Shown: positions 2,250 through 57,016 of the stretch, one piece after another
How the letters are laid out: every line of letters begins with the position of its first letter
How positions within the stretch are numbered: position 1 is the first letter of the stretch
Position numbers and translations under genes: made by a program
Assembly: GCA_964615625.1 (NCBI GenBank)
Contig: CAZTQT010000001.1
Span: forward strand, 12,438-76,437
Direction: 5' to 3'
DNA length: 64,000 nt
Source: an uncultured Candidatus Saccharibacteria bacterium
GTDB lineage: Bacteria; Patescibacteriota; WWE3; UBA101185; UBA10185
Notes under the pieces: model-generated
The model's input: the letters and a program-made list of their open reading frames with translations, nothing else
Told to the model about the DNA's origin: nothing
Databases searched by the model: none

Positions 2250-2684
2250 TTAATTATCAGATGTCTCGTTGAAGTACTCTTTAAGTATAAGAGCTGCTGC
2301 AAGGTGATCATTTAATGCTCTTTTTTTCATAGGTATATCAATATCTAAAGCCTCTTTTAAAGCAGCTTTAGATGTCCCAAACTCGTTTTGAAAAACAACT
2401 GGTCTTTTTGTTACCGTTCTTAGAGTTTTTGCAAACCTTCTTATTACCAACGATTCTTTGGTTTCTTTTCCCTCTGCTGTGAGTGGTAACCCCATGACCA
2501 CTAATCCTATTTTATTTTCTATAATAACTCTGTTTATTTCAAATAAGGCTATCTTTTGATCTTTTGCCATCACGACTTTTAGCGGAGATACTATGTTATT
2601 AACCCCCAAGGCAAGTCCTAAATGGGTTTCTCCATAATCTATACCAAGAATATTTGGAAGATTAGGGTCTTGTTTTACAGTCAT
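2250..2684 (-). CDS. ruvX: Holliday-junction resolvase-like YqgF/RuvX
   Basis: GIDYGETHLGLALG N-terminus and overall 144-aa YqgF architecture. Confidence 0.75.
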   Translation of the reverse strand: MTVKQDPNLPNILGIDYGETHLGLALGVNNIVSPLKVVMAKDQKIALFEINRVIIENKIGLVVMGLPLTAEGKETKESLVIRRFAKTLRTVTKRPVVFQNEFGTSKAALKEALDIDIPMKKRALNDHLAAALILKEYFNETSDN

Positions 2685-4195
2685 ATGGTTTCTCCTTTAT
2701 CTTCTTTTATTAGTTCCACATTTATTCTATCTGTATTTTTTGGAACTTTTGAGAAAAAAGGAACTCTTGGGGATATACTCATTTCGTAATATTCTATGTT
2801 TTTCAGAGACTCTATTATCTTTCTGGCTTCTTCCTCTGTTTTCCCACTTAAGCTTTCTCTAACATTATCCTCCTTAATATCAGGGATAATTATAGATCTT
2901 AATGTAATCTGAATATCAGCCTCCTTTGAATTCACAACACTGTTTACGGAATTGCCTAATACATTTATTTCTGTCTTTCTCTCTTTTTCAGGCATGTAGT
3001 GTCCTTCTGGTATAACACTCTTAAAATAATCACTAATGAAAGTGTTTAAATCCCCTTCTGTGTATATTAAGGCTTCAGCAGTAGCCTTTTGAGTTACGGA
3101 TATTTTATTTTTTTCGTCCCCAACCTGAGCACTAAATGTTTCAGAAGTTACTGTTACTTTTGTAGAACCTTCCACAAGCTTTTGATTTGAGGCTAGCTTA
3201 TTTTTTAAATCCTCCTCAGCCTTTTTAAGTAACGTTGTTCTAAGCTCACTAGAAACATCTGTTTTATCTGATTCTAAAACAATTTTTATTTCCTTACTGT
3301 TTCCTCCTGATAGTTTTCCTTTGGTCTTAGCTTCAGCCTCACTTTTATTTTTTCCAGATACAGAAAGGTTTTCATTATCATCTATGTTGTAATCCGGTCC
3401 TATATCTGAGGCTTCTACTTTTGCCTCAACCTCACCCCATTTTGATGTTAGTGTTTCTAGATCTTCTTCCCTTGGCGGTACAGTCACACTTTCCTTTAAC
3501 ACGTATACCAAGCTGTTAGACCCGTTTTTATAAGTAATCTTATTACCTTTATCAAGCTCCATCTCAGTATCTGTTTTATTGTATATTTTTATTTCCCCTG
3601 TAGCCTTTTCTCCTACAGTTTTTGAACCCGAAGTGTCCTTTTCTAAGCTATCTTCAACCTCTGCTGACAAAGTACTTCCGCGTAATATCATTTCTTTAAC
3701 ATTTGTTTGAGAATCGGCCTTTATTTTTACAGATATACTTTTTATGAATGGGTTAGATCCTACTGTTATTTTTACTGTAGCTTTGGGTGCTGTTGATCCG
3801 TAATAAATAAAAGAACCTACTAAAATTAAAGGTATTAACGCTAACAACCATTTTTTGTTTTCCCCTATTTTAGGCATTTTTATATGTGGGATACTAATAT
3901 TTCTCTTTTTTGGTTTTGTTGTGTATTCTTCAGTTCTTCCAAATTCCTCCGGTATGTACTCCATTTCTTTTCCTGATAATGCTTCCAATAAAACCTCTCC
4001 ATGCTCGTCGTTGGTAGAGAAGTTGATACTTTTTTCCATTTTATCGGCTTCGTGTTGAATAAGTTTTAAATTTAGAAAGTTCTCAAACAAAACAGATCCT
4101 TCTGGTATGAAAAGATCAATATTAAGATCACTAACCTCTTTAATTTTATTTATAACTTCTATTACATTATCTTCTTGGTTTAATTCCATTCTCAT
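2681..4195 (-). CDS. Bitopic membrane protein. It has a ~120-aa cytoplasmic N-terminus, one transmembrane (TM) helix and a ~370-aa Lys/Ser/Glu-rich extracytoplasmic domain. Function unknown. It may be the PilN-like partner of the adjacent actin-like protein.
   Basis: TM helix WLLALIPLILVGSFIYYG; the N-terminal NIDLFIPEG loosely resembles the PilN INLLP peptide; 4-nt overlap with ruvX. Confidence 0.4.
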   Translation of the reverse strand: MRMELNQEDNVIEVINKIKEVSDLNIDLFIPEGSVLFENFLNLKLIQHEADKMEKSINFSTNDEHGEVLLEALSGKEMEYIPEEFGRTEEYTTKPKKRNISIPHIKMPKIGENKKWLLALIPLILVGSFIYYGSTAPKATVKITVGSNPFIKSISVKIKADSQTNVKEMILRGSTLSAEVEDSLEKDTSGSKTVGEKATGEIKIYNKTDTEMELDKGNKITYKNGSNSLVYVLKESVTVPPREEDLETLTSKWGEVEAKVEASDIGPDYNIDDNENLSVSGKNKSEAEAKTKGKLSGGNSKEIKIVLESDKTDVSSELRTTLLKKAEEDLKNKLASNQKLVEGSTKVTVTSETFSAQVGDEKNKISVTQKATAEALIYTEGDLNTFISDYFKSVIPEGHYMPEKERKTEINVLGNSVNSVVNSKEADIQITLRSIIIPDIKEDNVRESLSGKTEEEARKIIESLKNIEYYEMSISPRVPFFSKVPKNTDRINVELIKEDKGETI

Positions 4196-4196
4196 A

Positions 4197-5399
4197 TTAA
4201 ATTACCCCTATTATTTCTTTATAAATAACTGATGCAGAAGCCATATATGTCCAATCATCACCTATGTTTTGATCTGTTATGTTGGCTATCTCAGGACTGT
4301 TTAGAAAAGAAAACTTTTTAAATTCTGGGTCATTCTTAAAAGGTATTGTCTTGGACCACTGTTCTGTTTCAAGAGCTTGAAAAATATCATCTATGTCAGA
4401 ACCACATCCAGAAAAATATACAGTTGGAGCAAAAGTTTTAACCCCAGGAAAATCTTCAAAAAGAATTTTTAAACCATCTATCCATATTTCTAAAACTTCC
4501 CTCAAACATGCTTTTACAAGGTTTGTTTCACTTTCTGATAGTTTTTTAGCTTTGTACATTTTAATAACAGCCTCAGTTTCTTTATTAGATAAACCCATCT
4601 TTGATCCAATAGCCTTTAAAAAGTGCAGATACCCTATGTTTAAAGATCTTGATGATGCCATACCTCCACTAAAAACAGCTCCAACATCAGTGGAATCCTC
4701 GGATAGATTTATGAGTACAAAGTCCTCTGGTTCAGTTGATGAAGTTTTTATTAATTCAACCAAAGAATACATCTGAGATCCTATGGCTATAATATTTAGG
4801 CCAGCCTTTTTAACAACATTTTGAACGGATTTTATATGAAAATCTGGAACGAATGCGTTATACACAGCCATTTCTACAGTTTGTCCTCTTTGTCCCTCAA
4901 GAACCCCAACCTTTTGATCATCTACCTTGAAATATATATCTGATGTTGTTATTGCACTTATACCAATGTCTGGATCACCTGTATTTTCCAAAACCTTGTT
5001 TCTGGCTTGGATAACAGCCGCTTCTTCTATTCTTTGATACATGTTTTCTATTTCGGATGTTTGTATAGGCTCTGATGTTGGTCTTTTCATCCTAACTGTT
5101 GTAGTAAGGCTGGTTGTTATACCTCCATCCAGACCGACAATAACGCTTTTAGTTTTGTTTTGTGAATTTTGAGTTGCTTTTTCTACAGTATTTTTTATTG
5201 CGTCTACAACAATATCATTGTATAAAATCATCCCGTTTCTGACAGAACCTTCGGGTAACTCTTGAAAACTTGCACCAGTTATATTTATTACGTTTTCGTT
5301 ATAGAGTAGCTCTAAGCATTTAACATCTCTAGCATTTATATTAAGAACCAAAAATCTATCATTATCCTCATACACTTTTTTAAAAGATGGCAGATTCAT
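4197..5399 (-). CDS. Actin-fold ATPase of the PilM/FtsA family
   Basis: N-terminal FLVLNINARDVKCLEL (phosphate-1-like), VIVGLDGG (second), GGMASSRSLNIGY; no ftsZ adjacent. Confidence 0.6.
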   Translation of the reverse strand: MNLPSFKKVYEDNDRFLVLNINARDVKCLELLYNENVINITGASFQELPEGSVRNGMILYNDIVVDAIKNTVEKATQNSQNKTKSVIVGLDGGITTSLTTTVRMKRPTSEPIQTSEIENMYQRIEEAAVIQARNKVLENTGDPDIGISAITTSDIYFKVDDQKVGVLEGQRGQTVEMAVYNAFVPDFHIKSVQNVVKKAGLNIIAIGSQMYSLVELIKTSSTEPEDFVLINLSEDSTDVGAVFSGGMASSRSLNIGYLHFLKAIGSKMGLSNKETEAVIKMYKAKKLSESETNLVKACLREVLEIWIDGLKILFEDFPGVKTFAPTVYFSGCGSDIDDIFQALETEQWSKTIPFKNDPEFKKFSFLNSPEIANITDQNIGDDWTYMASASVIYKEIIGVI

Positions 5400-21495: not shown

Positions 21496-22194
21496 CTAAT
21501 CCTGAACGTAGTATCGAATTATATCCGTAAATGTTTCTGAATCAAGGCTTGCATTTCCTACTAAGACCCCATCTATTTCCCTTATTCTGGATATTTGAGA
21601 AGCGTTTTTTTCATTTACAGATCCTCCGTATATCAACGGTGTTTCGGAGGGTATTATTTTTCTTATTTCTTTTGCAATAGCCTCTATTTTTTCTGGTTCT
21701 TCTGATCTATAAACCCCTCCAACAGATATATTTTGAGGATTTTCCCAAGCTATTATGCAACCTTCTTTGTGAAGGGATGGTAAATCAGCTGGGTTAACAA
21801 AACAAATGATTGGGGTAATGTTATCTCTTAAGCACAGGTCTCGTTTTTTTATGACATCTTCTATGTTTTCTTGTCTTTCACTATGGCCTATTATTGCGTA
21901 TCTACAAAAATCTTTTATTTGAAAAGCACCTGTATCCCCTGTATGAGCACCTCTGTCAAGTGAAGACACGTCTTGAACACCAATGTTTACGCCCATTTTT
22001 CCTGCTATATCGCACATTGCAGGGACGTATATCAAAGAAGGGCAGATTATCACACGGGGCCATCTTTCCTCAATTATTTTTCTTTTTTTCCAGTCTTTTT
22101 TTATATTTTTATATTTTTTGCTAAATGCCCCTGACCACCCCAATATCTCTTTTGACCCCATATTCATTTTCCAATTTGCTATAACGTATTTCAT
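21496..22194 (-). CDS. tpiA: Triosephosphate isomerase
   Basis: ANWKMN N-terminus, IGHSERQ, IAWENP...GG, YGGSVN. Confidence 0.85.
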   Translation of the reverse strand: MKYVIANWKMNMGSKEILGWSGAFSKKYKNIKKDWKKRKIIEERWPRVIICPSLIYVPAMCDIAGKMGVNIGVQDVSSLDRGAHTGDTGAFQIKDFCRYAIIGHSERQENIEDVIKKRDLCLRDNITPIICFVNPADLPSLHKEGCIIAWENPQNISVGGVYRSEEPEKIEAIAKEIRKIIPSETPLIYGGSVNEKNASQISRIREIDGVLVGNASLDSETFTDIIRYYVQD

Positions 22195-23042
22195 AATTCA
22201 GATATTTTTTTAATTGTCTCTTCTATAAGTTTAGGAAGGTTTTCTATGTCTTCATGTGTGTAGTTATAACCCAACGTATTTAGACAAGAAAATACCATAC
22301 CTATATCAGTGTATATTTTATCGGCAAACTGACATGCCACAAGACTATTTATAACTACATTGCCTCCTATTTCACCAACTTTAGATCTGTTACATCCCAT
22401 TGGGCAGTTAGAACAAGAGGGGTATCCTTCTTTGATAACTCTTAGATCATTACTCATTTCCATAATATTTTCATAAAGCTTCTTGTAATCTTCAAAATTA
22501 TCAACCGTGTAGTTTTCAGTTCCTGTTATTGATAAACCAACAATATTTCTATCCAAAAGTGCTTTTTCTAGATAAAGGTCTGGGGTAGTAAAGTACTCGT
22601 CCGCTTGTATTTTATCTTTGTTTACACATATTTGAGATCTTTTTCCTGGAAGCCCTAAAGATTGTATGTCTGTCTCTTTAGTATGGAATAAAACATCTGT
22701 ATTTTGTAATTCTACAACAACCTCATCTGATGATTTGCCGTGGAATAATATAGAGTCTATTCCTGCAAATTTTATTCTTGTTGATAAGTTTCCTCCTATG
22801 TATATGTCTTCAATAGCTCCGTTGTTATCTAAAACAATAGATGTTTTAGAGGCAAATGGGAAGAAGCCATTTAAAGGTCCTACAGAAAATATTAGCGGGT
22901 TTTTATCATGATAAACTTCTAAAAGTTTAAGACCAACACCAGTACCGCCAAAATAGGGATTTAAATCGGTAAAACTTTTGGTTTCAGATGTTTTATTTTC
23001 TAGGTCTATAATTACGACTTTTTTTACACTGGTATCTGTCAT
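22191..23042 (-). CDS. Truncated AOR-family protein. It carries the N-terminal domain and the CxxCxxxC [4Fe-4S] motif only.
   Basis: GPLNGFFPFASKTS...IGGNLSTRIKFAGIDSILFHGKS matches the AOR N-terminal domain (GPLTGT...GGYFGAELKFAGYDAIVVEGKA); CSNCPMGCNR matches AOR CYACPIGCGR; the gene ends at 283 aa where tpiA begins. Confidence 0.6.
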   Translation of the reverse strand: MTDTSVKKVVIIDLENKTSETKSFTDLNPYFGGTGVGLKLLEVYHDKNPLIFSVGPLNGFFPFASKTSIVLDNNGAIEDIYIGGNLSTRIKFAGIDSILFHGKSSDEVVVELQNTDVLFHTKETDIQSLGLPGKRSQICVNKDKIQADEYFTTPDLYLEKALLDRNIVGLSITGTENYTVDNFEDYKKLYENIMEMSNDLRVIKEGYPSCSNCPMGCNRSKVGEIGGNVVINSLVACQFADKIYTDIGMVFSCLNTLGYNYTHEDIENLPKLIEETIKKISEL

Positions 23043-23287
23043 TGTTCTACTACTCCCAGCACTTCTCTTGGGCAGATAGATGCTATTTTTTCAATATCAA
23101 GAACATTTGATCTAGGATCTATTTCTATATCAAATTTAATGGCGTTTGTATCAGCATCTTTGCCTCTAAAAACTCTTATGAGAGAGTCTTCAAGACCCAC
23201 TTTTTTTAACTGTCTCTGAGCTTCAAAAACACACATCTCACACCCAGTACACTTATCATTTCCTGTAGTTTTTAGTATTTTTGTCAT
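23039..23287 (-). CDS. Small 4Fe-4S ferredoxin-like protein
   Basis: CTGCEMC plus a distal ICP Cys motif; 82 aa; overlaps the AOR-like gene start by 4 nt. Confidence 0.5.
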   Translation of the reverse strand: MTKILKTTGNDKCTGCEMCVFEAQRQLKKVGLEDSLIRVFRGKDADTNAIKFDIEIDPRSNVLDIEKIASICPREVLGVVEQ

Positions 23288-23291
23288 TATC

Positions 23292-24266
23292 TTATTGATT
23301 GAGAGCTTCTATTCCAGCCAAAGTACCTTCTGATAGAAAGTCCAGCATAGCCCCTCCTCCGGTTGAAACAAAACTAAATTTGTTTAATAATCCCAACTTA
23401 TTTATTGCTGTTACGGTATCGCCACCTCCTACGACAGAGAAGAGATTACCTTCTTGCGTCATATCAGCTATCTTTTGAGCTACTTTCTTCGTTCCTACTA
23501 TAAACTGTTCTTCTTCATATTTTCCTAAAGGCCCGGCCCATAAAACTGTTTTAGATTTATCTATAGCTTCTGTGAATTTTTTTATTGTGCTCTCATCTAT
23601 ATCCAAAGAGTCTTCGTTAGCATTATCGGATAATAGTATATTTTGAGTAACTTCTTTATCCCAATTGGCTGATAATATTGAGCTCAACATAATAAAATCT
23701 GCAATTTTTTCAAATCTTTCAACCATCGGGAGCTTGCTTTCCAGTTTTATACCCCCAATTATTATGGAAAGTGGTTTGTCGGGGTTTTCCATAACTTTTT
23801 TTAATGAAAAAACTTCTTTTTCTAGGTTAAACCCAGCGTATGATGGTAATAACTTTGTTATTCCAACTATTGAAGCGTGTTTTCTGTGTGATGTTGCAAA
23901 GCTTTCATTGACGTAAATATTAGCTTTTGATGCAAGTTCAATAGAAAAAGTTTCATTATTTTCTTCTTCTCCTGGGTTAAATCTAAGATTTTCCAATAAT
24001 TCAAATTTTTTCGGACCTAATTTTTCTGTAAAATAGGGGAGTAGTTGTTTTGTACTAAGTTCCTCTACATACTCACCCTTTGGTTTTCCAATGTGACCTG
24101 CTATTACAGGTATCCCACCTTTTTCTATAATATATTTTAATGTTTCTAGTGATGACTCTAATCTAAAAGGTTCTTCTATAACTCCGTTGTTAATAGGAAC
24201 ATCTATATCACATCTGACAAAAACTCTAACACCTTTACTTATAGGGGCTTCGGATAATGTTTTCAT
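23292..24266 (-). CDS. pgk: Phosphoglycerate kinase (short, 324 aa)
   Basis: VFVRCDIDVP, hinge and C-terminal GGGDTV...STGGGAMLDFL. Confidence 0.85.
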   Translation of the reverse strand: MKTLSEAPISKGVRVFVRCDIDVPINNGVIEEPFRLESSLETLKYIIEKGGIPVIAGHIGKPKGEYVEELSTKQLLPYFTEKLGPKKFELLENLRFNPGEEENNETFSIELASKANIYVNESFATSHRKHASIVGITKLLPSYAGFNLEKEVFSLKKVMENPDKPLSIIIGGIKLESKLPMVERFEKIADFIMLSSILSANWDKEVTQNILLSDNANEDSLDIDESTIKKFTEAIDKSKTVLWAGPLGKYEEEQFIVGTKKVAQKIADMTQEGNLFSVVGGGDTVTAINKLGLLNKFSFVSTGGGAMLDFLSEGTLAGIEALNQ

Positions 24267-24293: not shown

Positions 24294-25379
24294 TTATGAC
24301 ACCATCATTATTGCCATGTCTACTAATCTACAGCTGTATCCCCACTCATTGTCGTACCAAGCAAATATTTTCAACATATTTCCATCTATGACTGTAGTCA
24401 TGGAAAGATCAACTATTGCGGAATGTGGGTCACCTATTATGTCAGATGAAACGAGTGGCTCATACGTAGCTTTTATGACATTCATGTATTTGGGGTCTTT
24501 TGCTGCACCTTCAAATACTTTGTTTACTTCTTCTTTAGTAACGTTTTTTTCTAGTAGCGCTGTTATATCAACAATTGAGCCTGTTATTATAGGAACTCTT
24601 AAAGATGTGCCATCAAATTTGCCCTTTAGATTTGGTAATACGTCTCCTGTAGCATCTGCAGCACCTGTTGTAGTAGGAACAATATTGTAACCAGCAGCCC
24701 TTGCTCTTCTCATGTCAACTTTCTCTCCAAATGGTGGGCTATCTACAACATTTTGGTTAGCCGTTACAGCATGTATTGTACTCATTCCGGCTTTTAATAT
24801 TTTAAAATTTGAATCTATGATTGCTAGAACTGGGGATATGCAGTTTGTAGTACAGGATGCGTTTGATATTGCATTTTGACCTAGGTATTGAGAATCGTTA
24901 ACACCCATCATGAAGGTTTGGATAGTACCGCCTTTTACTGGGGCTGATACAACAACCTTTTTAGCTCCTGAAGAGATGTGTACTAAAGCAGCATCATCTT
25001 TTGTAAATTTTCCAGTGCATTCAAGAACCACATCTACACCAAGATCTCCCCAAGGAAGATTAGCAGGGTCTTTATCTGAGAACATAGCTGTTTTTTTACC
25101 ATCAACAACTATAAAATTTTCCGTTCCTTTTATATTGAAAAATTCTTTCCCACCGTCATTTTCTTCTAAACGTACTATTTTTCCATCTTCTTCTAGCCAA
25201 ACGTCTTTATCATACACACCGTAAGCAGTGTCATATTTTAGGAGATGTGCCAAAACTCTGGGGTTGGCAATGTCATTTATTGCAACGACATTTAAGCCTT
25301 TTTCCAGAGCAATTTTAAAGGATGCTCTACCTATCCTTCCGAATCCATTTATAGCTATTTGGGCAGTTTTATTTTCCAT
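24294..25379 (-). CDS. gap: Glyceraldehyde-3-phosphate dehydrogenase (type I)
   Basis: INGFGRIGR, SNASCTTNC active site, WYDNEWGYS. Confidence 0.95.
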   Translation of the reverse strand: MENKTAQIAINGFGRIGRASFKIALEKGLNVVAINDIANPRVLAHLLKYDTAYGVYDKDVWLEEDGKIVRLEENDGGKEFFNIKGTENFIVVDGKKTAMFSDKDPANLPWGDLGVDVVLECTGKFTKDDAALVHISSGAKKVVVSAPVKGGTIQTFMMGVNDSQYLGQNAISNASCTTNCISPVLAIIDSNFKILKAGMSTIHAVTANQNVVDSPPFGEKVDMRRARAAGYNIVPTTTGAADATGDVLPNLKGKFDGTSLRVPIITGSIVDITALLEKNVTKEEVNKVFEGAAKDPKYMNVIKATYEPLVSSDIIGDPHSAIVDLSMTTVIDGNMLKIFAWYDNEWGYSCRLVDMAIMMVS

Positions 25380-25393
25380 ATACTAATATGATA

Positions 25394-25660
25394 CTACTTT
25401 ATATGTGAATCTATCCAACTTTTTAACATATCTTTTGGCATAGCACCTAGTTTTCTATCCACCTCTTTATCATTTTTCAGAATGACAAATGTAGGGATAC
25501 TCATTATTCCAAATTGTGCTGCCAAATCATTGTCTGATTCAACATCCACCTTTTCAAATGTTACCTTGTCTGCGTATTCTGTTTCTATTTCTTCAAAAAT
25601 AGGAGCCATAGCTTTGCAAGGCCCACACCAATCTGCATAAAAATCTATTAATTTAATCAT
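25394..25660 (-). CDS. trxA: Thioredoxin
   Basis: WCGPCK active site, 88 aa. Confidence 0.9.
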   Translation of the reverse strand: MIKLIDFYADWCGPCKAMAPIFEEIETEYADKVTFEKVDVESDNDLAAQFGIMSIPTFVILKNDKEVDRKLGAMPKDMLKSWIDSHIK

Positions 25661-41634: not shown

Positions 41635-44232
41635 TTATTCAGCTGTAGTAACCTCCTTTTTATTTAAATTTCTGATATCGAAAAATTCTCCCATATTTTC
41701 TGCACAAACCACAAATTTTTCCAAAGGTATGCCGTTAATTTCCTCTACCCCTAGTTCCTTTCTTATTTCATTTATTAAATACATTCTATTTTCAGGTAGT
41801 CTGGTGCATATACCCATGATCATGTTGGGATGTACACCTCTTTTAAACATTACTTCGTTACTTGGGTAGAAGTTTATTTTTGCGTCATTAACGAATTCAT
41901 CGGCAGAAGGTCTTAAAGAAAAGGTATCTTCACGTATACTGCCGTAGTTATCTTCTTTATATGCATACCAATCTGTTCTATTTAATACCTCTGGATTAAT
42001 AACTAGGGTATAGTTACTTAGGTTAAATTTTGGTGCTGTTTCTTCTGAGATCAATCTAGTAAAAGCACTGTTAAAACCACCGGTCCCGGTATCCTCGCCT
42101 GTTGAAAGTCCGTTTATAATCTTTCCACTCTCCCATCTTGTTTGACTAGCTTGCAAACCTCCCTTAAGCATATTTGTAATATTATCTGACTCATATATTG
42201 AATGTGCTAGGACTAGATTTTGATCTTTAGTCCATTCTTCAACTGCCTTTTCATTGACGTATGTACTATAACCAGGGAATACCTCTTCCAATACAAGTTT
42301 GTTAGCTTCTTCTTTGTTTTTCTCATCCATTTCTGATATCTTATGGAACCATTTATATCTGGCAAATCTGTAAACCATTTCGGCTTCTGTATCAGGTTTC
42401 TCTAATCCGTTATCTATTCCCAAGGTTTTCATAGCTTTTTCTATTTCTGTTGAAATTTGTTCTGGTGACATATCTCCTCCCCTCACAGCTATCTGCACAG
42501 CCCCCTTAAAAGCCAGCTTCTTTTCTGTATCTTCTGCTACATGTATCACTGTGTTTGGAGTTATTTGTATATCTAGGCTTGCAAAGTTAACATTATCACC
42601 GACTTCGTTTGAGTTGAAAAATGTGTAATTATATCCGTGTGATACTTGAGGCACATTCGAACTAGCGGTTTGAATTTCGTTTGTAATCATTGTCGTCCTT
42701 CTGTGGTTTTCAGTAGTTTTAAAATAGACTAAAAAATCGCCTTTGTTTGTACATACCACGTTTATATTATGTCCTTCAATGTGTGTACTGTCTCCGCGTA
42801 CCCCCACATACCCGTGTTTTTCAAGACTTCTTCTAAGTTCTGAAATCTCCAGCGCTTTTGCGAACCCATCTATACCACCTTTTTCCATTGTATTTCTTCT
42901 ACCCTCAATGTTAGTGGTATCTAGATCAAATTTATTAATCAAAAAATTACGTCTCCCAACCATACTGTTGATTAAATGTTCTCTGGTCTCTTCTGGTAAA
43001 TCTTCTCTTGAAACAATTCTTCTAATATCATCCTCACTTAGTTTATCCACAAGATATTGCGCCTGCTTTTTTATCTCTTCTTCAGTTATCCCTTCAAATA
43101 TAAGGGCACTGTTAGGGTTTATACTAGGGTTTAACATGGATTCTAGCTCTGGTATATCTGGGCCGTATTCTTTTAAACCACCTTGAGCTCTAAAAATAAG
43201 AGTTCCTCCGTTATCTATTCTGTACACCCTTCCGTCAGACCCTCGTTCTAAGTTATCAAAACCTAGACCAGCAACGTCCCAGTTTGCTAAAAATGCGTCT
43301 GCAACAAACCCTTTTCTAACGGAGTAGCTGTTTTTCAAATTCTCTTTACCAACTCTTTCATGACCTTCTATCACTCTAGAAATATATGCTGTTTTATTGC
43401 CTATAGCACCTATTTCTGATCTTGGAGCGTGTATTCCAAGATGTTCATAAATATTATTTGATACTGTTTCCACACGTGCTTGATTTGGATCCTCATAAAA
43501 TTTAACGTAATATTCATACCCAGCTGCATCTTTATATAGACCACCATCATTGGAACCTAGATTTTCACCAATTTTGGTCACCCCTCCAAACACCCCTAAA
43601 CGACTGTCTTTAGATACTGGTTTGTAATCTTCCCAAGTGTCAAACTTATGCAAAAACTCACCCCACTCTTTCAAATAATCTTGGGGGTTAATGCCCCATT
43701 CATTAGATTCCTCCTCAGATTCAGTGGTTGAAATATAGTCCACACCTTTCTCTGAATTCGTACGGTCTGCATGTTCAACTTTTTCCCACTTTATATCCTG
43801 CTTAATTCCTTCGTTTCCCCCAGCAATAGTTGAAATACTACCCAAATCTCCTTTCCCGGAGATATCCCAAACTTCAGATGCATCCCATGGAGACGGGGTG
43901 GTTGAAATATCTTCATTGACTGAATTATCAAAGTTTAGCTTACCATATAAGTTATCAAGATTTATCCCTTGGTATACAATATTTGAATTTTCCGTATTCA
44001 AATTTTTTAAATCTGAATAAAGTTTGTCAAACTCATCCATTTCTTCCTCTACCAAATGCTCATTACCTCCTATCATTTTGTAAAATTTTTCCTTAATCTC
44101 TCCAGCTTTCTCAGCTATTTTTTCTTTGATGTCAGAGAAGACTTCAGCAAAGGTTTTCTTTTCCTCTTTTTCTGGAGAAGAGGAGTGTTGTGTCTCAAAA
44201 GAGTTTTTAAGTATATCGGCGTTATATGTCAT
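41635..44232 (-). CDS. Large cytoplasmic protein with a protein-kinase-like catalytic core. The family is unassigned.
   Basis: Gly-rich loop GSNDGGLYK, Lys in YYVKFY, Glu in RVETVSNNIYEHLG, catalytic loop DAFLAN (D...N), DFG-equivalent RIDNGG, with canonical spacing; no TM or signal peptide; 865 aa. Confidence 0.5.
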   Translation of the reverse strand: MTYNADILKNSFETQHSSSPEKEEKKTFAEVFSDIKEKIAEKAGEIKEKFYKMIGGNEHLVEEEMDEFDKLYSDLKNLNTENSNIVYQGINLDNLYGKLNFDNSVNEDISTTPSPWDASEVWDISGKGDLGSISTIAGGNEGIKQDIKWEKVEHADRTNSEKGVDYISTTESEEESNEWGINPQDYLKEWGEFLHKFDTWEDYKPVSKDSRLGVFGGVTKIGENLGSNDGGLYKDAAGYEYYVKFYEDPNQARVETVSNNIYEHLGIHAPRSEIGAIGNKTAYISRVIEGHERVGKENLKNSYSVRKGFVADAFLANWDVAGLGFDNLERGSDGRVYRIDNGGTLIFRAQGGLKEYGPDIPELESMLNPSINPNSALIFEGITEEEIKKQAQYLVDKLSEDDIRRIVSREDLPEETREHLINSMVGRRNFLINKFDLDTTNIEGRRNTMEKGGIDGFAKALEISELRRSLEKHGYVGVRGDSTHIEGHNINVVCTNKGDFLVYFKTTENHRRTTMITNEIQTASSNVPQVSHGYNYTFFNSNEVGDNVNFASLDIQITPNTVIHVAEDTEKKLAFKGAVQIAVRGGDMSPEQISTEIEKAMKTLGIDNGLEKPDTEAEMVYRFARYKWFHKISEMDEKNKEEANKLVLEEVFPGYSTYVNEKAVEEWTKDQNLVLAHSIYESDNITNMLKGGLQASQTRWESGKIINGLSTGEDTGTGGFNSAFTRLISEETAPKFNLSNYTLVINPEVLNRTDWYAYKEDNYGSIREDTFSLRPSADEFVNDAKINFYPSNEVMFKRGVHPNMIMGICTRLPENRMYLINEIRKELGVEEINGIPLEKFVVCAENMGEFFDIRNLNKKEVTTAE

Positions 44233-55222: not shown

Positions 55223-57016
55223 TTATTTTCTTTGGTTTTTATGAATTTTCTTAATTTCTTCAACTGTTGTAGCATCTTGTGGCTTTTTATCATGTCTAAA
55301 TTTTATTAATCTTGGAAACCTTAAAGCGTATTTTGCTGTATGTGACGGAGAAACGCTTATCTCATCGGCACCTATTTCAACTACAAGTTCTGGGCTTACT
55401 ATAACATCAGGTGTGAACATTTTAGTAACATCAACATTCTTAGGTAATTCTTTTATTTTTATCTTATCGCAGGCTGCTTTTAGTACCTTTAAATCATCTT
55501 CTGTTAGACCTGTCCCTATCTTTGAAACAGTTTTAAAAGTGTTGGTTTTTTCATCAAAAACGCCAGCTAGAAAACCCCCTATCCCAAATTTTGATCTGAC
55601 CCCCTTGCCGTAGTAATAGCCTAAAACTACACAATCTACAGTATCAGAAAGGAGCTTTTGATCAGCAGTTTTATACTTTATCCACGAATACGATCTGGCC
55701 CCAGCTTGGTACGGGTCTTCTGGGGTTTTAACCACAATCCCTTCCAACCCTTTATTTTTTGCAATTTCAAAATACTCTTCTAATTTTTCAAATTCCGTTG
55801 TTTCAAGATGTTCATCTACTTCAATCACATTTCCTGTTTTTATGACAGAGGAGAGTAGTTTTCTTCGTTCAGAGAGCGGTTTGTGTGCTATGGATTCTCC
55901 GTTTAAATACAGAAGATCAAATACAAAATATTTAAGAGGAATGTTTTTTGCTGCTTCAGAAATGTTATATTTCCTTTTCCTCTGTATTGTCTCTTGAAAA
56001 GGTAGAAATTCTCCTGTTTCTTTGTTGTATCCAATTCCCTCGCCGTCTAATATAGCGGAATTTGCATTTATTTGTATTTTTGCAGCTTCTATAATCTCTG
56101 GATATTGATGGGTTGTCTCTTCTAAATTTCTTGTATATGTTTTTACCAGTGTTTCATCTTTTACACCGCTAAACAAACTTCCCTGGGGTTTGTTATCACT
56201 GTTACGTTTCTCATCATAATTACCTTTTTTGGCAAAATGAAGTTGTACTCTTGTACCATCAAACTTAAATTCGGCCCAAACGTTATCTATTCTTTCCATA
56301 ATTTCTTCCATCCCGCTCACCCTTTGGGCTTTTTGTGATAAAACAGGAACCCCTATTTCCATTTCTATACCATCAATTCCTTTTATCCCATCGCTTTTTA
56401 TTTTTTTAGCTATTAAACCTATATCTGGGTGTATGTTGTATTTATTTTCTATTTTTTTAGCTAGGGATTTATCATTTAAAAAATTGGCCAGCGCAACTAT
56501 TATTGTTAATTCTGTAAATCCAAGCCTCATTGTTCCTAAAATTATTCTTGTTATATGTTTGGCCGATAAGGCATCTACGTCTTTTATCAGATTTGATATT
56601 TTAGTTATTTTTGCTTCTTGTGATCCAGAACCTTCAATTTGGGATATATCTATAAGTTTGGAATATACTTCAGATATAGTTGGATTTTTGCTGGTTTCAT
56701 CGTTTTTTTTAAATTCAAAAACAACATTTCCTAGATCCCCTGTTTGTGCATATAGATTTTGAATATTATCTTTTATATCTGGATTTTTAGCAGTGGAGAA
56801 GGATTGTTCAAGGACTCTAAACATCATTCTATCTGCAATGTTGAATTTTATTCCCTCAAACTGCGCCCCAATATAACCAGAAGCCAAGTATATAGCCTTG
56901 TCAGTTTCTTCAACATCCAGGTTTTTGATTAAATCTGAAAGTATATCAACCATCTCTAATCTTTTTGTGGTGTCTTCTAGTTTTTGAAGATACTTTGATA
57001 GCTCACTAAATCTCAT
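55223..57016 (-). CDS. ATP-dependent DNA ligase (Lig1-like: DBD-NTase-OB)
   Basis: Motif I KFDGTR, motif IV FDLLYLNGE, motif V EGIVVK, motif VI-region WIKYK; 597 aa. Confidence 0.85.
   Translation of the reverse strand: MRFSELSKYLQKLEDTTKRLEMVDILSDLIKNLDVEETDKAIYLASGYIGAQFEGIKFNIADRMMFRVLEQSFSTAKNPDIKDNIQNLYAQTGDLGNVVFEFKKNDETSKNPTISEVYSKLIDISQIEGSGSQEAKITKISNLIKDVDALSAKHITRIILGTMRLGFTELTIIVALANFLNDKSLAKKIENKYNIHPDIGLIAKKIKSDGIKGIDGIEMEIGVPVLSQKAQRVSGMEEIMERIDNVWAEFKFDGTRVQLHFAKKGNYDEKRNSDNKPQGSLFSGVKDETLVKTYTRNLEETTHQYPEIIEAAKIQINANSAILDGEGIGYNKETGEFLPFQETIQRKRKYNISEAAKNIPLKYFVFDLLYLNGESIAHKPLSERRKLLSSVIKTGNVIEVDEHLETTEFEKLEEYFEIAKNKGLEGIVVKTPEDPYQAGARSYSWIKYKTADQKLLSDTVDCVVLGYYYGKGVRSKFGIGGFLAGVFDEKTNTFKTVSKIGTGLTEDDLKVLKAACDKIKIKELPKNVDVTKMFTPDVIVSPELVVEIGADEISVSPSHTAKYALRFPRLIKFRHDKKPQDATTVEEIKKIHKNQRK

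Follow-up and report, generated by a model that had tools for sequence, protein, structure and literature searches.

What does a shortened relative of aldehyde:ferredoxin oxidoreductase (AOR) do among the glycolytic genes of a bacterium with a minimal metabolism? The question is raised by a stretch of 64,000 nucleotides (here called the window) on contig CAZTQT010000001.1, from an uncultured bacterium of the WWE3 lineage, in which two small genes lie between pgk and tpiA:

22191 to 23042, minus strand: mAOR, 283 amino acids (aa), an internally deleted WorL/AOR-family protein (open reading frame, Pfam, alignments)
23039 to 23287, minus strand: fdx82, an 82-aa single-cluster ferredoxin-like protein, a reduced WorS small subunit (open reading frame, homology chain)

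With a probability of roughly 0.55, the pair is a cofactor-stripped derivative of a class II (WorS-WorL) tungsten-containing oxidoreductase (WOR) that would act as an electron-transfer module with two [4Fe-4S] clusters. The anatomy of the pair, that is, the map of its deletions and the retention of its ligands, is held with high confidence, and its physiological role as an electron carrier with modest confidence.

To our knowledge, the characterised members of the AOR/WOR family all carry a tungsten or molybdenum bis-pyranopterin cofactor. A classification from 2026 divides the WORs into 92 clades and five classes, assumes that every WorL bears the cofactor, and mentions neither Patescibacteria nor a cofactor-less WorL (PMC13328260). 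Full-text literature searches yielded no account of WOR relatives without pterin, none of this gene pair from the candidate phyla radiation (CPR), and nothing relevant on AOR, AFOR_N or glyceraldehyde-3-phosphate (GAP):ferredoxin oxidoreductase (GAPOR) in CPR, WWE3, Katanobacteria or Patescibacteria.

Anatomy of the two proteins

mAOR is a true relative of the AOR/WOR family. An earlier note on this DNA, made by eye from the sequence, had likened the 283-aa protein to the N-terminal domain of AOR and suggested a search against two Pfam families. The first, AFOR_N (PF02730), is matched well above its cutoff (67.9 bits against 29.8, E 1.3e-18; residues 8-122 on profile positions 2-129 of 199), whereas the second, AFOR_C (PF01314), reaches 15.1 bits and stays below its cutoff of 27 (residues 172-221 on positions 37-81 of 385). 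The conserved blocks quoted in that note, and the likeness of CSNCPMGC to CYACPIGC of PfAOR, are both real in the alignments. A profile of the mini family, as the close homologs of mAOR are called here, matches AOR/WOR chains and nothing else in the PDB. AlphaFold2 gives a compact model of mAOR with a 99-sequence alignment (pLDDT 87.3, pTM 0.89); with a 20-sequence alignment, residues 196-283 fall below a pLDDT of 50. In Foldseek, nine chains match the model at E<0.001 and all of them belong to the WOR family (AOR, FOR, WOR5, BamB, AorB and WorL), with E values from 7e-14 to 4e-12 and a TM score of ~0.6 on the query. The three-dimensional fold of AOR domain 1 is present in the model:

22509 to 23024, minus strand: mAOR residues 7-178, compacted AOR domain 1 (Pfam; AlphaFold2 pLDDT mostly >85; Foldseek E ~1e-13)

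Has mAOR simply lost its C-terminal end? The earlier note had the protein stop just after the CxxCxxxC motif, but 66 more residues (218-283) follow, in which conservation across the family is highest. In BLASTP alignments with the full-length relative P0166, mAOR residues 8-217, from the N-domain through CxxCxxxC, lie on P0166 residues 7-276, and residues 234-271 lie on 449-486 (E 3e-8). With a second full-length relative, P0170, residues 230-272 lie on 489-530 (E 1e-5). P0170 aligns end to end with PfAOR (1aor, E 7e-64), its SLVICLF falling on PfAOR SAGLCLF, which holds C494. The mapping of C494 was routed via P0166 and P0170 because the C-terminal 83 aa of mAOR alone have no phmmer match in the PDB; an E-INS-i alignment that took in PfAOR and full-length, CPR full-length, mini and micro forms confirms mAOR C237 on PfAOR C494. 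Since residues ~230-272 align to a domain-3 segment that carries the fourth ligand, mAOR is, by these alignments, an internal-deletion derivative of WorL and not a C-terminal truncation. The parts that remain behind domain 1 are:

22392 to 22415, minus strand: CSNCPMGC of mAOR (C210, C213, C217), at the positions of PfAOR C288, C291 and C295 (alignments; motif in 120/120 members)
22332 to 22334, minus strand: mAOR C237, at the position of PfAOR C494, the fourth [4Fe-4S] ligand (alignments with P0166, P0170 and 1aor; E-INS-i alignment)
22197 to 22331, minus strand: mAOR residues 238-282, helices homologous to a segment of WorL domain 3 (BLASTP, alignment, AlphaFold2)

The last of these segments holds the most conserved motif of the family, FSCLNxLGYxYTHED, together with C253, which is specific to the mini forms. 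Five Cys are invariant in the mini family; CxxCxxxC occurs in all 120 members, and the aligned ones keep all four ligand Cys. That the four Cys positions form one site is supported by their joint loss, documented by alignment, in five full-length relatives (P0165, P0168, P0172, P0299 and P0305).

The segments absent from mAOR correspond roughly to PfAOR 243-282, 299-484 and 545-605, so that the ancestral enzyme has lost about 320 residues, the active site included. T243, E313, Y427 and H448, which are second-shell catalytic residues, fall in deleted segments, as do D338/D343 and K450. There are two copies of the pterin-phosphate motif DxxGL(C/D)x, reportedly defined by Chan et al. in 1995 at PfAOR 338-344 and 489-495; the first is deleted from mAOR, and the second persists as (N/H)SLVACQ, with its Asp and Gly lost. 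In domain 1, GRGGxGAVMGSK, which contains the cofactor contacts R182/A183, is substituted by TTPDLYLEKALLDR, and K66 occupies the position of R76. Published work lists N93 and A183 as domain-1 Mg/pterin contacts of PfAOR and T243, E313, Y427 and H448 as conserved second-shell residues (PMC12096430). By this residue-by-residue comparison, mAOR is without every pterin-binding and catalytic residue. The loss of the tungstopterin domains proposed in the earlier note thus holds for the bulk of domains 2 and 3 but not for the domain-3 segment with the fourth Cys, which is kept.

What is the partner of mAOR? The 82-aa CxxCxxC frame that had been noticed directly upstream, overlapping by 4 nt, is joined to mAOR by an ATGA junction, and its CxxCxxC...CP pattern is found in every sequence compared. 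It has four Cys, sufficient for one cluster:

23231 to 23251, minus strand: fdx82 CTGCEMC (C13, C16, C19), the first three cluster ligands (translation; invariant in 61/61)
23069 to 23074, minus strand: fdx82 C72-P73, the distal fourth ligand, CP (translation; invariant in 61/61)

Against Pfam, fdx82 remains below the gathering thresholds of both Fer4_15 (17.2 bits, threshold 22.4) and Fer4 (14.7 bits, threshold 21.1). It is homologous over its full length (E 4e-9) to a 79-aa ferredoxin encoded upstream of a full-length AOR-like gene at locus L078. The N-terminal 50 aa of this ferredoxin match the N-terminus of a 145-aa protein with 16 Cys (E 2e-9), a WorS-like protein of the four-cluster type that is encoded upstream of a 600-aa AOR relative; its matches in the PDB are the Fe-S subunits of WOR5, of the bifurcating WOR (WorS), of NrfC and of AorA. 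By this chain of homology, fdx82 is a WorS polyferredoxin in which one cluster of the four is left. In the NarH/DmsB-type topology, the first three Cys of motif I and the last Cys of motif IV are, we presume, the set expected for the proximal cluster. In solved WorSL structures, WorS docks onto WorL with its N-terminal domain, and the distance from cluster S1 to the WorL (L2) cluster is 10.8 Å (PMC12318220).

How might such a pair have arisen, and how might it work? The ancestor of the WWE3/Katanobacteria lineage would have possessed a two-subunit tungsten oxidoreductase encoded downstream of gap-pgk. Internal deletions have cleared most of domains 2 and 3, the part that binds tungstopterin, leaving domain 1 and the four Cys, and fdx82 has kept the first CxxCxxC and the terminal CP of the WorS polyferredoxin. 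From their ligands, mAOR and fdx82 are each predicted to bind one [4Fe-4S] cluster; the two proteins would heterodimerise in the manner of WorS-WorL, with the S1-type cluster facing the WorL cluster at ~11 Å. The pair would bind no pterin and could not oxidise GAP, the oxidation of which would be carried out by GAP dehydrogenase (GAPDH) and phosphoglycerate kinase (PGK), both present and conserved. It would shuttle low-potential electrons in the manner of a ferredoxin, from genes translationally coupled to the pgk and tpiA neighbourhood. Rather than oxidising aldehydes, the pair probably transfers electrons as a small module.

Conservation, selection and gene neighbourhood

Is the pair restricted to this genome? 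The earlier note had allowed that homologs of the 283-aa form might be absent elsewhere. A protein search with mAOR returned 371 homologs, the best 120 clusters of which are 276-289 aa long (one has 309 aa) and 53-99% identical; counted from these best 120, the mini family comprises at least 120 clusters. A scan of species-representative genomes yielded 60 loci, from as many WWE3-type species, among them that of the complete genome CP006914.1. fdx82 and mAOR are adjacent in 60/60, tpiA lies downstream of mAOR at every locus where the contig reaches past mAOR, and in most of them the run begins with a thioredoxin gene. Measured against the window, mAOR has a median amino acid identity of 53% and fdx82 one of 52%; the corresponding values of the neighbours are 51% (pgk), 43% (tpiA) and 62% (gap). 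Among close pairs, the ratio of non-synonymous to synonymous substitution rates (dN/dS, NG86 method) is 0.030 for mAOR (n=19) and 0.044 for fdx82, with gap at 0.042, pgk at 0.054 and tpiA at 0.100. Both genes are maintained under strong purifying selection, which on mAOR is as strong as on its glycolytic neighbours. Length conservation and dN/dS, the two checks that had been suggested, thus agree, and the idea of a repurposed mini-AOR Fe-S protein retained in frame is borne out by at least 120 clusters, 60 species, five invariant Cys and a dN/dS of ~0.03.

The gene order has a few variants. At four loci (L032, L034, L035 and L041), gap is followed directly by fdx-mAOR and pgk was not detected between them, and at L064 the order is trx-fdx-mAOR-tpiA, with neither gap nor pgk detected between trx and the pair. 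Loci that lack pgk at the pair are of interest because GOR- and GAPOR-type enzymes bypass PGK.

The placement of the pair inside a gap-pgk-tpiA cluster, claimed from the sequence alone, is confirmed by Pfam and NCBIfam, which identify the flanking genes as pgk, type I gap and tpiA:

25394 to 25660, minus strand: thioredoxin gene, the first of the co-directional run
24294 to 25379, minus strand: gap, type I GAPDH, 361 aa (TIGR01534 above cutoff)
23292 to 24266, minus strand: pgk, 324 aa, directly upstream of fdx82 (PF00162, E 6e-84)
21496 to 22194, minus strand: tpiA, 232 aa, overlapping the mAOR stop by 4 nt (PF00121, E 3e-39)

The tightly packed minus-strand run reads trx-gap-pgk-fdx82-mAOR-tpiA and continues with lytR-family, holA-like and sortase genes. 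Both the fdx82/mAOR and the mAOR/tpiA junctions are 4-nt ATGA overlaps, and the pair is translationally coupled to its neighbouring genes. No terminator-like sites were seen on the minus strand between ~19.5 and 26 kb of the window, and a promoter scan gave as many matches as expected by chance. Across the whole 64 kb, an Rfam scan found no family at the gathering threshold and no tRNA, rRNA or riboswitch; the window therefore holds no molybdenum cofactor riboswitch.

PGK is short, at 324 aa, and matches the Pfam PGK model (379 positions) in three stretches; its WWE3 orthologs are of like length (323-344 aa). GAPDH, at 361 aa, matches Gp_dh_N in two stretches, which suggests an insertion of ~25-30 residues in the NAD-binding domain.

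The window is AT-rich (GC ~34%), its remaining genes are ordinary housekeeping genes, and the nearest relatives of its genes carry the label candidate division WWE3 or Patescibacteria. For three large open reading frames on the minus strand (2681-4195, 4197-5399 and 41635-44232; 504, 400 and 865 aa), Pfam gives nothing at E<=1e-5. The minus strand also encodes, at 55223-57016, an archaeal/eukaryotic-type DNA ligase that is ATP-dependent and contains the domains DNA_ligase_A_N, _M and _C.

Full-length relatives and the history of the pair

From which enzyme did the pair derive? PfAOR (1aor) shares with mAOR the domain-1 fold, the blocks GPLxG..P...K and GG....KfAG.D, and the CxxCxxxC motif with its distal Cys (C288, C291, C295, C494; among the best Foldseek matches, E 3e-13, TM score on the query 0.62); it has, however, 605 aa as against 283, and the bulk of its pterin-binding domains is missing from mAOR. 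Class II WORs, such as C. bescii GOR, P. furiosus WOR5/ASOR and Aromatoleum AorAB, resemble the pair in having a small Fe-S gene directly upstream (PMC13328260, PMC12096430, PMC12318220). Their WorS-type proteins share with fdx82 the N-terminus and the terminal CP, but the ligands of fdx82 suffice for a single [4Fe-4S] cluster, against the four clusters of WorS. GOR is, like the pair, linked to glycolysis genes; it is reported to conserve the four second-shell residues, whereas mAOR has none of the four and no pterin module. In a HMMER alignment, the H448 position is taken by Asn instead of His in the parent full-length clade.

Archaeal GAPOR, from which the earlier note thought that the pair could stem, belongs to the same superfamily as mAOR, and the hypothetical ancestral role of the pair also lies at GAP oxidation. 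In contrast to the pair with its upstream WorS-derived subunit, archaeal GAPOR is monomeric and has no small subunit. The NCBIfam model NF040818 (GAPOR_Arch) gives no match to mAOR at E<=1, and with the full-length syntenic relative it reaches 28.4 bits over ~80 residues, far from its cutoff of 1300. Membership of mAOR in archaeal GAPOR is not supported by these scores, and a GAPOR-like activity in the present-day protein is implausible, the pterin-binding and catalytic positions all being deleted. GAPOR and GOR are themselves unrelated clades (PMC12096430).

Full-length homologs at the same locus, of the kind that the earlier note had proposed to look for, do exist in related lineages. Just below the mini family, an exhaustive profile search places AOR-like proteins of ~540-550 aa and 'micro' forms of ~200-217 aa. 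The full-length loci come from a metagenome scan with a 2-sequence alignment and from contig look-ups. These CPR forms have ~545 aa (~536-578), match AFOR_N at E 1e-36 and AFOR_C at E 1e-22, and follow pgk and a gene for an ~80-aa ferredoxin in the order trx-gap-(x)-pgk-Fd(~80 aa)-AOR(~545 aa)-lytR-holA...S20-murJ. By profile score and tree, the full-length proteins of WWE3/Patescibacteria (for example L076 5001-6638 and P0305) are the nearest relatives of mAOR, with which they share the genomic position, the one-cluster partner of ~80 aa, and the motifs GGxGxxxxL, GPLxGxxPxxSK and LGxxxSHE. They differ in that they keep AFOR_C and have no adjacent tpiA, and several are without all four cluster Cys. 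At L078, the 79-aa partner keeps its Cys motif although the large subunit, P0305, has lost all four Cys. A micro form of ~215 aa is found at locus L084 of a WWE3 genome, after pgk and a 79-aa ferredoxin.

tpiA follows the AOR-like gene in mini lineages only; L076, L078 and L084 have lytR or other genes there. In a published tree, some triosephosphate isomerase sequences of Katanobacteria group with archaeal ones (PMC7304191).

In a neighbour-joining tree on 282 shared columns with 100 bootstraps, the mini and micro forms together are monophyletic (97/100) and group with the CPR full-length forms (71/100). The next relative is a clade of 570-610-aa proteins, the genes of which are usually preceded by a WorS-like gene of 105-145 aa; an exception is L086, where an outer-clade member has no small Fe-S gene upstream. 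Two WorS-WorL pairs, with large subunits of 589-600 aa and small subunits of the four-cluster type, lie within sugar-catabolism clusters: L081 (283-7803) has the order pgm (PGM/PMM)-pyk-pgi-WorS-WorL, with PFOR downstream, and L087 (579-5090) has pfk-WorS-WorL-glycogen phosphorylase. These two are candidate bacterial GAP:ferredoxin oxidoreductases. Other members of the outer clade adjoin POR, archaeal-type carbon monoxide dehydrogenase/acetyl-CoA synthase (CODH/ACS) or unrelated genes.

Descent from a complete AOR-family gene with a ferredoxin in a glycolytic cluster, as the earlier note supposed, is supported both by the full-length forms behind pgk and by the sugar-catabolism clusters of L081 and L087. 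Did the ancestor oxidise GAP? A two-subunit enzyme with this activity, like C. bescii GOR, fits the comparison but is not proven; because the contexts of the distant full-length relatives are mixed, the role is suggested, not shown. GOR of C. bescii is a class II WOR (PMC13328260). The CPR full-length forms are already without equivalents of D338, R182 and D489, so cofactor binding may have been lost before the internal deletion took place.

Possible functions of the pair

Which enzyme could the pair serve? The paper on the complete genome of WWE3 RAAC2 reports a PFOR or 2-oxoglutarate:ferredoxin oxidoreductase and a type 3b hydrogenase; the only carrier it gives is a 'ferredoxin oxidoreductase-like protein', with no stand-alone ferredoxin listed (PMC3812714). 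With such a 2-oxoacid oxidoreductase and the hydrogenase reported, the pair could be the ferredoxin-type carrier of the cell, and a carrier for the ferredoxin-dependent 2-oxoacid oxidoreductase of WWE3 is plausible.

Several observations weigh against a simple electron-transfer module. mAOR has a set of invariant polar residues (K66, E78, D79, Y81, K134, E224, N228, D246, N255, H263, E264 and D265) and the family-specific invariant C253, which exceed the apparent needs of a passive carrier. The Cys-less full-length relatives keep an intact open reading frame at the same locus (L078 6001-7644, that is P0305, ~550 aa), so the ancestral function retained in this lineage may not be purely redox. 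Placing the retained fdx82 cluster at S1 leans on the NarH/DmsB-type ligand topology, and would hold as far as that topology does. Finally, lytR, holA and sortase genes share the co-directional run, with equally small gaps and no terminators between, so that operon context alone says little on function. Given the polar residues, C253 and the Cys-less homologs, a catalytic or thiol-redox role, or one as scaffold or sensor, is possible.

How probable are the other roles? A non-redox structural or regulatory function, in which the pair would be a scaffold or sensor with the glycolytic enzymes and its clusters would be structural or would sense O2 or redox state, is unlikely, if quite conceivable. 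In related lineages, this locus is occupied by intact full-length homologs without the Cys (P0299, P0305/L078, P0165, P0168 and P0172), and conservation is highest in a C-terminal helical motif (LGYxYTHED), not in the Cys alone. Yet no mini member lacks CxxCxxxC and the aligned ones have all four ligands, fdx82 keeps its four ligands throughout, and the architecture is that of an electron-transfer pair. Still less likely is a pterin-free catalytic or thiol-redox activity, retained or gained, at the GAPDH/PGK step. The pair might, for instance, be a cluster-based reductase that depends on ferredoxin and uses a now-exposed [4Fe-4S] cluster and Cys253 to maintain GAPDH or thioredoxin in the reduced state, loosely like ferredoxin:thioredoxin reductase (FTR). 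The site right after gap-pgk is kept across three size classes, the thioredoxin gene comes first at most loci, mAOR has many invariant polar residues, and C253, invariant in the mini family, is Ala in the full-length and micro forms. The absence of C253 from the micro forms also counts against the proposal, however, and there is one extra Cys only, with no evident disulfide pair; near the pair at the micro locus L084 there is no record of a thioredoxin-family product, and gap is on the opposite strand; Pfam and NCBIfam scans give no similarity to FTR or Hdr families; and synteny inside one phylum is weak functional evidence. There is a slender chance that the pair is a new kind of Fe-S enzyme, or a redox relay, that serves specifically the GAPDH/PGK step across an entire CPR phylum, with ferredoxin-driven reactivation of oxidised GAPDH or thioredoxin, or cluster-based oxidation of triose phosphate, as examples. 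If true, a tungstoenzyme scaffold would have been re-used once the cell could no longer make the tungsten cofactor.

The remaining explanations fare much worse. In a split tungstoenzyme, pterin-binding domains encoded elsewhere would assemble in trans with the pair into a working GAP:ferredoxin oxidoreductase; mAOR does retain domain 1 and the cluster site, two regions that touch the cofactor in genuine WORs, and K66 stands at the R76 position. But a six-frame profile search found no AFOR_C-like frame in the 64-kb window, the domain-1 pterin/Mg contact motif is replaced, the remaining DxxGLC is without Asp and Gly, the full-length CPR relatives also lack the D338, R182 and D489 equivalents, and the paper on the complete WWE3 genome makes no mention of tungsten or molybdopterin (PMC3812714). 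Such an enzyme is very improbable. The earlier note had considered a decayed remnant, and the loss of ~320 ancestral residues, the active site among them, would suit a functionless pseudogene. That idea is scarcely credible: length is constant (almost all 276-289 aa) across at least 120 clusters and 60 species, dN/dS of mAOR is at or under the values of gap and pgk, the AlphaFold2 model is compact and confident, and the start and stop are coupled to the neighbours. Length conservation, the 60 loci and a dN/dS of 0.030 rule it out. Might the short frame instead be a full-length AOR gene broken by a frameshift or an assembly error? Nothing else resembling AOR appears in the six-frame profile search of the window, tpiA follows immediately after mAOR, and independent assemblies (NCBI, JGI, ENA and Logan), with the complete genome CP006914.1 among them, contain the same 276-289-aa form; an artefact is ruled out by that search and these assemblies, with something close to certainty.

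What does the pair mean for the organisms that carry it? The labels that databases give to the mini genes are 'AFOR N-terminal domain-containing protein' or, from JGI, 'aldehyde:ferredoxin oxidoreductase', and the latter automated label is misleading and functionally wrong. A whole bacterial phylum keeps a version of WOR minus its cofactor module, with the Fe-S cluster site and a one-cluster remnant of the polyferredoxin subunit intact, under selection as strong as that on the glycolytic enzymes. With full-length, mini and micro stages all extant at one locus, the pair provides a clean natural case of reductive evolution converting an enzyme into something else, and it flags a universally conserved redox component beside the core ATP-yielding steps in organisms of minimal metabolism.

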